In this document: piece after piece, positions 1 to 5,623 of the stretch
How the letters are laid out: the number at the start of each line of letters is the position of its first letter
How positions within the stretch are numbered: position 1 is the stretch's first letter
Assembly (NCBI GenBank): GCA_048938855.1
Contig: JBHLLT010000042.1
Coordinates: 5,877-19,278 of the forward strand
Origin: Promethearchaeota archaeon
Lineage (GTDB): Archaea > Asgardarchaeota > Lokiarchaeia > Sigyniarchaeales > SOKP01
DNA length: 13,402 bases
Direction: 5' to 3'
The notes under the pieces: model-generated
What the model saw: the letters and a program-made list of their open reading frames with translations, nothing else
What the model was told of the DNA's origin: nothing
Databases searched by the model: none
Position numbers and translations under genes: made by a program

Positions 1-154
1 TGGCTCTGGTTCAGGCTCATATACCGGTTCAGGTTCATATACCGGTTCAGATTCAGGCTCATATAGTGTTTCTGGGATAGGTTCATATACTGGCTCTGGT
101 TCAGACTCATATAGTGTTTCTGGGATAGGTTCATATACTGGCTCTGGTTCAGGT
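1..154 (-). repeat. Coding tandem repeats: 48-nt (16-aa) units at 43-90 and 91-138, 18-nt (VYEPEP) units at 7-24 and 25-42
   Basis: ctcatatagtgtttctgggataggttcatatactggctctggttcag occurs twice 48 nt apart; ggttcaggYtcatatac occurs at an 18-nt period. Confidence 0.9.
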
Positions 155-714
155 TTGTATACTTGTTCTGACTCATATATTGGTTGAGTTTTGGGTTCCG
201 GTTCAAATTTAGGTACTAATGATGCTACATATAACGGTTCTGGTTCGATTTCTTTTAATTGACCTTTTGCGTTTAAATCTAGTTTTCTTTTTATCTCCTT
301 TTCATTTATTTCTTCATCAGCAATTTGAATAACATGAAAGGGATTATTCTCTGGATTTATCATTTCGGATCCAATTAAAATTGTTTTTGGTTTTGCTTTT
401 TTTTTATCTATTCTCAATTCTATTGTGAAATTTCCAGTTGTAAAAAAATCTATTCCGTTTAATTTATCTTCCTCCAAAGAATTCCAATGAATTAAATTTT
501 CTCCCATATCATATATTTTAAGTTCAGTTTTAGGATCAACAATTCTAGTGATTTTCAGTTTATCCTGATGCAAAATTTTTCCTTGAAAGTTATGCGATTT
601 TCCTTTTTTAGTCGCCCATCTCAAATGAAAACCATCTGATTGCTTCCATAAATAATATCCTAAAAGTTGTTCTGATTCAAATTTTGGACGACCCTTAATG
701 TCCCATATATTCAT
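1..714 (-). CDS. Hypothetical protein (3'-truncated by the window edge): N-terminal beta-rich domain followed by Pro/Glu/Tyr-rich repeats
   Basis: Manual translation from ATG at 714 is open for 238 codons to the window edge: MNIWDIKGRPKFESEQLLGYYLWKQSDGFHLRWATKKGKSHNFQGKI...NGIDFFTTGNFTIELRIDKKK...NPENNPF...EPEPVYEPIPETLYESEPEPVYEPIPETLYEPESEPVYEPEPVYEPEPEP. It is absent from the ORF track because no stop codon lies in the window. Confidence 0.85.
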   Translation of the reverse strand, partial: MNIWDIKGRPKFESEQLLGYYLWKQSDGFHLRWATKKGKSHNFQGKILHQDKLKITRIVDPKTELKIYDMGENLIHWNSLEEDKLNGIDFFTTGNFTIELRIDKKKAKPKTILIGSEMINPENNPFHVIQIADEEINEKEIKRKLDLNAKGQLKEIEPEPLYVASLVPKFEPEPKTQPIYESEQVYKPEPEPVYEPIPETLYESEPEPVYEPIPETLYEPESEPVYEPEPVYEPEPEP

Positions 715-987
715 ACTTTTTACAAAATTGTTTTATTTAATTTTTATAAATTAATGACACAACTTGTTATTAAATATTATTATATAAACCTTTATTTTAA
801 AACTAAAGGCTCGAAAATTGGCAAATAATACAGAATGTAAATTATTTAAAATTTTAAAAAAAAAGATTTGTTATCTTTATATAATCGTTTACCAAATAAT
901 CCTTATTCAAAATTTTTATAAATTTAATTAATGAATTTTAAGTAATAATCCTAAAAGATTAATAGAAATACCCTAAAGAATAATCTT

Positions 988-3600: not shown

Positions 3601-3615
3601 AAAAAAAAAAAAAAA
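3601..3615 (-). terminator. Oligo-T (T15) archaeal-type intrinsic terminator for the Lys-rich microprotein gene
   Basis: Run of 15 A on the + strand (T15 on -), about 40 nt downstream of the stop at 3654. Confidence 0.55.
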
Positions 3616-3641
3616 GTATGATTTGGTGTAAGTTTTCTTTA

Positions 3642-3749
3642 TTTTTTAGCAGGTTATTTTTTTTTAGGAGCTGCTTTTTTAGCAGGCGCTTTTTTTTTTG
3701 GACCTGCTTTTTTAGCAGGTGCTTTTTTTTTAGGAGCTGCTTTTTTAGC
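3642..3749 (-). repeat. 33-nt tandem repeat, about 3.3 copies (AKKAAPKKKAP unit)
   Basis: Units at 3749-3717, 3716-3684, 3683-3651 and partial 3650-3642; consensus GCTAAAAAAGCAGCTCCTAAAAAAAAAGCACCT. Confidence 0.92.
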
Positions 3750-3752
3750 CAT
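3654..3752 (-). CDS. 32-aa Lys/Ala/Pro-rich microprotein resembling the histone H1 tail (MAKKAAPKKKAPAKKAGPKKKAPAKKAAPKKK)
   Basis: ATG 3752 preceded by SD AAGGAG (3770-3765). All A-runs keep frame. Repeat variants include synonymous changes (GCA/GCG, CCT/CCA) and one Ala>Gly. TAA at 3656-3654, T15 downstream. Confidence 0.8.
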   Translation of the reverse strand: MAKKAAPKKKAPAKKAGPKKKAPAKKAAPKKK

Positions 3753-3764
3753 TTTGTTTTACGT

Positions 3765-3839
3765 CTCCTTTAATTTTTTTAACTTTTTATTATAATTAGA
3801 TACTTGATAATAAGTTTTTATTTTATTTTTAAATGTTTC
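3765..3839 (-). promoter_or_regulatory. SD (AAGGAG) and candidate BRE/TATA (GAAACATTTAAAAA) for the microprotein gene
   Basis: ctcctt at 3765-3770; tttttaaatgtttc at 3826-3839. The TATA call is tentative in AT-rich DNA. Confidence 0.4.
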
Positions 3840-4041
3840 TCTTTTAAACTATTCGTAACATAATAATTTTGTAATTTCGCGTTATCACATAAATCAAAAA
3901 TAACTTCTCCTTTATTTCCTCCAACCATCTTAATAATCGAATCTAAATGTCAATCCATCAAGTACATTTTCAAAAAAATAATCTTTGTTATTTTTTCTAT
4001 GAGATTTACTAAAATGAGAGTAAAATAAAATAAATTATATT

Positions 4042-4378: not shown

Positions 4379-5623
4379 TTATTTTATTTTCTCCCTTAAT
4401 TCCCTTTGTTTTTGTCGTATAATTTGTTTGTCTTTTTTTATACTGTAAATATAAGCATTTTTACTCATAACGCAAGAATCATTTTGGGTTAACTTTTTAA
4501 TTAATTCTATTCTTAATTTTAATGCTTCAATGTTCTCAGGTTCTGATTGAATAATTATATCTAATAATTCAAGTGCTAGTTGATATTGCTTCTTTTCAAA
4601 TAAATTCTTAATTCTAGAGAATATTTTTTCTTTATCTCCAATAAGATCATAAATCTCTCTCATAATCTCCTTTTCTGGTCTAGGTATCAGATGTGCTGGA
4701 TTATGATCATAATAACCATGATACCATCTATATACATTATATACAAAAAATTCTGGTCGAGAATAGACTTGTTTTAGAAATGGACTATTAATTAAATGAT
4801 CTGGAACTTTTACCGTGTGAATCATCTCTGTAATATGCATTCCTTCATTGATTAATTTTACCACTTGATCATGTAATGAACGTATGACTTTGATATTATC
4901 ATTTAAAACTTGTTTTGTGTCTTCTCCCTTAAATAAATATCCACCACCACTACAGAAAATGTTTTCTGGCTCTAACATACTTATTCTCTCTAATTCTTTA
5001 GCCCATTCTAAAGCAAACCGAGTAGGCTTCCATGGGTTTCCAACATTTGGAAACCAACGACCCATTATAAAATCACCAATACACACGGTCTTAAGCTCAG
5101 GAATGTACACCCAGACAGCATCATCAGTTTCACCACGACCAGTGTGAAGTTCAAACGTATATCTCCCAAGCCTAAATGTGTAATCTCCTAGAAAAGTTTT
5201 TGTTGGATACACATAATTCTTAACACCTTCCCCAAAAGCAGATGGTGGGACATTAAATTGCATAGCAGAAATTAAATTCCTATATGGTTCAAGCATTTTG
5301 TACCTATCAAATCTTTCTGGTAAAAATTTACTTGCGATTATCTCTGGATTATTCGCCGTGAAGACTTTTGCTCCACCTACATGATCAGCATGACCATGAG
5401 TATATATTATGACTTTGATCTTTTCATTAATCTTATTTAATACTTTCATTGCGGAAGGAATATTAATTAATGTATCTATTACTACAGCCCCTTCACCAGT
5501 TTCAACCCAAACCATTCCAGAAATTAAAGTTGACGCATAGTATACTCCATCTATATGCTTTTTTATAATCGGGTTCATTCCATCAGTTATTATATTTAAA
5601 GATTTTATCTCTCTTTCCGACAT
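4379..5623 (-). CDS. MBL-fold metallo-hydrolase, alkyl/aryl-sulfatase (BDS1/SdsA-like) with dimerisation domain
   Basis: THGHADHVGG metal motif, GETDD, GDF...FPNVGNP, and C-terminal YRWYHGYYDHNPAHL, characteristic of alkyl sulfatase-like MBLs. Confidence 0.88.
   Translation of the reverse strand: MSEREIKSLNIITDGMNPIIKKHIDGVYYASTLISGMVWVETGEGAVVIDTLINIPSAMKVLNKINEKIKVIIYTHGHADHVGGAKVFTANNPEIIASKFLPERFDRYKMLEPYRNLISAMQFNVPPSAFGEGVKNYVYPTKTFLGDYTFRLGRYTFELHTGRGETDDAVWVYIPELKTVCIGDFIMGRWFPNVGNPWKPTRFALEWAKELERISMLEPENIFCSGGGYLFKGEDTKQVLNDNIKVIRSLHDQVVKLINEGMHITEMIHTVKVPDHLINSPFLKQVYSRPEFFVYNVYRWYHGYYDHNPAHLIPRPEKEIMREIYDLIGDKEKIFSRIKNLFEKKQYQLALELLDIIIQSEPENIEALKLRIELIKKLTQNDSCVMSKNAYIYSIKKDKQIIRQKQRELREKIK

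Follow-up and report, generated by a model that had tools for sequence, protein, structure and literature searches.

The window examined here, a stretch of 13,402 nucleotides from a Promethearchaeota contig, contains a very short open reading frame whose product consists almost entirely of lysine, alanine and proline. It raises the question of whether this is a gene at all, where its repeats came from and what such a peptide might do in an archaeal cell. The original prediction gave the ORF 32 residues, an ATG at 3752 and a composition of 15 K, 10 A, 5 P, 1 G and 1 M, and this was borne out exactly. The encoded peptide (3.3 kDa, pI 11.2) has an 11-residue period, with KKKAPAKK present in two exact copies at residues 8-15 and 19-26, and the underlying DNA is an 18+15-nt (11-codon) repeat whose units differ synonymously. 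It has no hydrophobic core; Ser and Thr are absent from the 32-aa peptide of the window, and acidic and aromatic residues from the whole family of free peptides described below.

The gene is the sole occupant of a 1,132-nt gap between neighbor genes, flanked on one side by an alkyl-sulfatase-like metallo-beta-lactamase gene (4379-5623) and on the other by a 73-aa ORF followed by a glyoxalase gene. Further away, on the minus strand of window positions 1-730, an ORF that runs off the window end encodes a product ending in acidic Pro-rich repeats of the EPEPVY type (18- and 24-nt units), and in relatives, N-terminal domains akin to that of this ORF are again found close to the peptide gene. The features of the locus are collected in Table 1.

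Table 1. Features of the peptide locus, in window coordinates
Feature	Position	Strand	Basis
T15 tract, putative archaeal-type terminator	3601..3615	minus	Inferred
PAKK-then-TAA in-frame remnant past the stop	3639..3653	minus	End of the 37-aa form of sister genomes
Coding sequence, 32-aa K/A/P repeat peptide	3654..3752	minus	ORF list and translation, ATG to TAA
SD-like motif AAGGAGACG	3762..3770	minus	Kept genus-wide; partial complementarity to host 16S 3' end
Archaeal BRE (3840-3835) and TATA box (3833-3826)	3826..3840	minus	81 nt 5' of ATG; orthologue alignment

The locus had been proposed to be a complete small gene with a Shine-Dalgarno sequence, AAGGAG, and a run of 15 T, and both signals were located. 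AAGGAG lies at 3770-3765, 12 nt upstream of the ATG, and the 3' end of the host 16S rRNA that is partly complementary to the SD-like motif reads GATCACCTCCT. A BRE-TATA element was found about 80 nt upstream in 44 orthologues (exactly 81 nt in 22 of them), and when a promoter matrix was built without the host genome, the site in the window ranked 1st of 3,395 upstream regions. Transcription is predicted to start near 3805. Past the stop, a tract of T6 or longer occurs within 70 nt in 45/45 orthologues. A strong promoter common to the peptide and the histones was not detected with the peptide matrix, as only one histone ranked high (ranks 10, 295, 706 and 1174). The gene was also expected to be unannotated and overlooked by gene callers. 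The former holds in that neither Pfam nor NCBIfam contains a family matching the free peptide, whereas the latter does not, because the ORF is called at 32 aa.

This is a real protein-coding gene. Five separate Logan run assemblies contain an ORF for the identical 32-aa protein, and in each it is called as a gene, so that neither its A-runs (the longest is 10 nt) nor its stop can be attributed to assembly errors. In a six-frame translation of the 3.95-Mb host genome, the ORF was the only segment that passed a filter for K/A/P richness, and control searches of 400 genomes with reversed patterns returned 0 matches; the ORF is therefore not a chance occurrence. In 13 collinear 37-aa orthologues, compared pairwise and hence non-independently, differences at first, second and third codon positions numbered 83, 195 and 994 and dN/dS was 0.051, and identity was 85% in the coding part and 51% downstream. 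Protein-level selection, previously argued from the synonymous differences between repeat units, is supported by this dN/dS value and by the excess of third-position changes. A search for in-frame orthologues in relatives, suggested at the same time, yielded 45 distinct full-length members with the frame kept and no frameshifted member among them. A microsatellite, an assembly artefact or a non-coding element might still be suspected from the low complexity, the A-runs of up to 10 nt and the absence of the peptide from a clustered protein collection that includes a neighbor protein from the same contig. However, the dN/dS value, the conservation of frame, promoter, SD-like motif and T tract in relatives, the identity among five assemblies and the lack of any Rfam match for the locus make this extremely improbable, and on such evidence it is effectively refuted.

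The substitution pattern indicates that the peptide is under purifying selection, and comparison across the family indicates that what is selected is the pattern of charge and a minimum length, and not the exact sequence. The members are 27-38 aa long and contain about 49% K, 27% A and 17% P. Prolines are mostly spaced every 5-6 residues, lysines come in twos and threes and the net charge is +12 to +19, while changes in unit order and in length (27 to 38 aa) are tolerated. Earlier stops arose several times, never before residue 27, and the gene in the window is one such case: sister genome G007 carries the 37-aa form, and the remnant in Table 1 is the end of that form, removed by an earlier stop. 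Read-through of the TAA into the remnant was considered and rejected, since such remnants decay in relatives.

The contig had been assigned to a probable Asgard archaeon, with a call to check its taxonomy, and it proved to belong to Lokiarchaeia (Promethearchaeota). The host genome has an archaeal 16S gene, five canonical archaeal histones and three Alba genes, and histones in genomes of its order bear the names Ca. Lokiarchaeum ossiferum and Promethearchaeum syntrophicum. When 185,579 species genomes were searched, 31 of the 32 pattern matches were to archaeal MAGs named Promethearchaeota, other Asgard or 'uncultured archaeon'. In a tree of tailed-histone loci the host is sister to G007, which also has the closest peptide locus. 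Taken together, the 16S gene, the histones, the taxa of the pattern matches and the kinship with G007 assign the contig to Lokiarchaeia and to its host. As for a Planctomycete match (L118), it may be the end of a 97-aa ORF.

All occurrences lie in three genera of a single taxonomic family: the gene was found in 29 of the 54 genomes of the host genus (g1; one of the 29 copies is cut by a contig end), in 16/42 of a second genus and in 1/10 of a third. These counts are the union of pattern and profile searches plus locus read-outs; the genome profile search was insensitive and missed the gene in the window, and the patterns were derived from known members, so frameshifted or divergent copies may be missed. 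An occurrence in genus g15 (G184) was left out because its contig is 100% identical over 2,044 bp to a contig of G229, a genome of a different genus; this is probably a case of mis-binning (contigs L092 and L113). Metagenomes contributed 30 further copies on similar low-GC contigs, and viral contigs gave 0 matches. Pattern and profile searches did not find the gene in the sister family, to which MK-D1 and B35 belong, nor was it found in other Asgard genomes among the 400 searched. RNA-seq of cultured Lokiarchaeia, once proposed as a test of expression, is thus of no use with MK-D1 and B35, which lack the gene in the searches made. Peptide types match the clades of the tree, which indicates vertical inheritance. 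The gene was lost in some lineages, and in G003 (97% complete) the flanking genes are in order with the peptide unit cleanly absent, so the gene is dispensable. Two loci show additional variation. In G225 (L130:2415-2837) two paralogues of 38 and 31 aa stand in tandem; both have a BRE-TATA of their own, and divergence is greater in the upstream copy. In G245 an 80-aa K/P/T/R-rich repeat ORF with a MAKK start lies near a contig end (L132:30-272) and may be a longer, diverged family member or an assembly artefact.

Where the peptide came from is suggested by the histones of the same organisms. Lokiarchaeia possess a tailed histone of the HLoB type, whose tails are abundant, nucleoid-localised and lysine-methylated (bioRxiv 10.64898/2026.07.02.735847). 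This one paralogue is tailed in 119/154 genomes of the order, and in the two main genera its tail usually starts with MAKKKAPAKK. The octamer KKKAPAKK of the peptide is identical to residues 3-10 of the tailed histone of the host, and in a six-frame translation of the host genome KAPAKK-type motifs are restricted to the tailed histone and the peptide gene, apart from two frames that match by chance. Peptides of some clades are nothing but tandem copies of the first six residues of the tail, and in a subclade of the second genus both tail and peptide have shifted to PAPK/AAPK units. Shared 5-mers between peptide and tail were more frequent for a genome's own tail (0.57) than for other tails (0.48), with a clade-level p of 0.02-0.07. 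Sister pairs gave 5 cases for co-variation, 1 against and 14 uninformative, and the G225-G222 clade contradicts it; this co-variation is therefore modest, weakly established and dependent on few independent events.

The free peptide and the HLoB tails thus share a lineage, a MAKK start, units of two to three lysines with Ala/Pro, and APAKK/APKK motifs. They differ in that the tailed histones (MK-D1 QEE14984.1, B35 UYP47653.1) carry the histone fold PF00808, whereas the peptide ORF ends after 32 codons with no histone fold near it; in addition, the peptide (27-38 aa, against 7-28 aa for the tail) is a separate gene with its own promoter and terminator. No free tail was found by a term search of the HLoB preprint. 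The suggestion of a detached histone-tail module agrees with the match between the repeat unit and the HLoB-type tail of the host, and we regard it as rather likely, from the shared motif, that the peptide originated from such a tail. Low-complexity convergence is possible as well, since lysine-rich tails arise readily (PMC10919886). MAKK starts are frequent in the host proteome (33 ORFs), so the likeness at the N-terminus is weak evidence of descent. No synteny of the peptide gene with any histone gene was found, and an apparent shared neighbor cluster with the tailed histone was rejected, the neighbors being paralogous small GTPases. Compensation, with the peptide present where tails are short, was also rejected within genera: tail lengths with and without the peptide were 14.4 vs 14.8 aa in g1 and 16.1 vs 13.0 aa in g22. 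As tails are no shorter where the peptide is present, the peptide does not replace the tail. In four loci (L071, L043, L052 and L083) the tailed histone itself lies in a conserved block, in which the gene of a TrmB-like regulator lies divergently on its upstream side and a HIT-like gene points towards it from downstream, both identified by eye. In genome G000, truncated histone-like ORFs of 64 and 66 aa with MAKKA starts occur near C60:70514-71195 and near C70:62168, and one of the two adjoins an Alba gene.

The composition of the free peptide matches that of the C-terminal domain of canonical H1, and relevance to the origin of H1 had been proposed. Reviews note that no linker histone homologous to H1 is on record for archaea (PMC6136690), and that a bacterial origin is assumed for the H1 family (PMC9239181). 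The peptide gave no match to the winged-helix globular domain PF00538, for which the host genome has nothing above the cut-off (best E 0.25, with a stop inside). Canonical H1 has a long K/A/P C-terminal domain with S/TPKK motifs, whereas the free peptide has 27-38 aa and APKK/GPKK/PAKK units. As judged from these features, namely the lack of a winged helix and, in the window peptide, of S/TPKK, the short length, the narrow range and the existence of similar micro-ORFs in probable bacteria, the free peptide is not a member of the H1 family. A contribution to H1 by descent does not fit a peptide that occurs in only some members of a single Lokiarchaeia family and has no globular domain; given this confined range, the missing domain and the K/A/P ORFs of probable bacteria, convergence is the simpler explanation.

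The closest likeness is to single-domain H1. The H1 of T. brucei, which compacts chromatin, has just one domain, of K/A/P type and containing AAPKK units (PMC3486875), and the kinetoplastid proteins, like the free peptide, consist of one unfolded K/A/P domain with AAPKK-type units and no globular domain. The resemblance is in composition, and a function in common would be an analogy. The peptide is about a third as long as TgH1-like, which has 91 aa (PMC9769792), and its host is an archaeon with histone stacks, whereas kinetoplastid and apicomplexan hosts have octamers. The AlgP C-terminal domain (PMC9239181), chlamydial Hc2 and mycobacterial PAKK tails also have K/A/P repeats in variable number but, unlike this bare 3-kDa peptide, they either far exceed it in length or are joined to a folded domain. 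In NCBIfam nothing came near the cut-off (Rv3852 family, E 0.15-2.4), and a profile search of 1.84 billion proteins returned 6 weak compositional matches of 213-486 aa. The narrow range favors an origin independent of the known single-domain H1-like proteins. An H1-like cluster defined by structure is listed for Asgard in a 2026 preprint; such a protein would be folded and hence distinct from the free peptide. In our searches of the literature, no account of a free tail-like peptide from Asgard archaea came up.

The same motif is also attached to other proteins. In a member of another Asgard family (G065, L137:1995-2393), a Thorarchaeia-type Alba (PF01918) has an N-terminal extension that is acidic and then consists of PKKKAPAK repeats. 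K/A/P- or K/T/P-rich extensions were detected on Rpo5, Topo VI A, an L32e-like HhH protein, a MoxR-type AAA ATPase and ClpP (L136, L085, L086, L124 and L072); the ClpP may come from a bacterial contig inside the bin. The tails on Rpo5, the MoxR-type AAA ATPase, ClpP and the probable L32e imply that the motif is not DNA-specific. Free K/A/P ORFs of 39 and 29 aa (L198 and L211) were found on metagenome contigs of 49% and 64% GC, without archaeal promoters. They are probable bacterial analogues, and the free K/A/P type therefore probably arose more than once.

What, then, does the peptide bind? An unfolded chain with about 16 lysines set apart by Ala and Pro, lacking catalytic residues and selected for charge pattern and length, fits sequence-independent binding of a polyanion. 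Among polyanions DNA is the strongest candidate: the motif comes from a histone tail that is localised to the nucleoid, it also extends an Alba and a Topo VI A subunit of other Asgard genomes, and it matches T. brucei H1. By analogy, the free peptide probably binds DNA. An RNA- or ribosome-associated polycation (an accessory ribosomal peptide, a hibernation factor or an RNA chaperone) would be of suitable size, since eL41 and bS22 show that ribosomal-type polycations fall in this range. The K/A/P linkers on the Asgard L32e-like HhH protein and Rpo5 point in the same direction, as does the additional association of TgH1-like with the nucleolus and ribosomal proteins (PMC9769792). However, ribosomal proteins are fixed, whereas the peptide varies freely in unit order and length and has no aromatic or arginine anchor; its gene is patchy (29/54 genomes of g1), is absent at the syntenic site in G003, has no ribosomal neighbor genes and matches no Pfam or NCBIfam family. 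We consider such a role unlikely.

The remaining alternatives accept the histone-like chemistry but place it elsewhere. The peptide might mimic the tail: instead of binding DNA, it would act in solution as a decoy or buffer towards the proteins that write, erase or read lysine methyl and acetyl marks on HLoB tails. It does hold exact copies of the tail octamer of the host, weak co-variation with the tail exists and Loki tail-acetylation writers and erasers are present, but a +15 peptide would be expected to bind nucleic acid anyway, and a decoy should track the tail more tightly than the mismatched clades allow, which makes this improbable. It is also doubtful that the peptide is a convergent micro-protein whose target is a different polyanion (polyphosphate or a storage granule, for instance), in the manner of AlgP and PhaF tails and with only a compositional likeness to histone tails. 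The KPAA repeats of AlgP influence how polyP granules are spaced (PMC9239181), same-size K/A/P ORFs without archaeal promoters exist (L198 and L211) and AT-rich DNA easily yields lysine-rich tails (PMC10919886). On the other hand, PPK1 was not found when searched for in the 97%-complete host genome, the peptide has no second domain of the kind that tethers AlgP or PhaF to granules, and its motif is shared specifically with the host histone.

We therefore favor, with modest confidence and by analogy with globular-domain-less H1s, a repeat-expanded copy of a histone tail that acts as a diffusible accessory DNA-binding polycation. According to this explanation, an HLoB-type lysine-rich N-terminal tail would have expanded to some 5-6 units, each of 2-3 lysines with Ala/Pro spacers, and the monocistronic gene would encode a small unfolded polycation. 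Once expressed, the peptide would bind the DNA backbone with no sequence preference and might neutralise or bridge DNA, either on the stretches wrapped by histones or between them, in the way of the H1 C-terminal domain and of single-domain H1 in kinetoplastids. Lysine methylation of the kind reported for HLoB tails may tune it. It would be a non-essential accessory chromatin factor beside the five canonical histones and three Alba proteins. A stronger version, in which the tail split off as its own gene, acts in trans as a linker-histone analogue on or between histone stacks, is switched by modification of the same lysines and co-evolves with the tail, is conceivable but tentative.

If the peptide were such a linker analogue in trans, archaea would have their first H1-like chromatin compactor, and a living organism would illustrate how a globular-domain-less H1 can arise from a core histone tail; the peptide would then represent a convergent route to H1-like chemistry and not an H1 ancestor. 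In any case the family represents a class of Asgard micro-proteins that lacks annotation and would probably escape standard tryptic proteomics. A conserved free K/A/P peptide beside abundant tailed histones offers a cheap test of chromatin compaction in trans by tail-like polycations.
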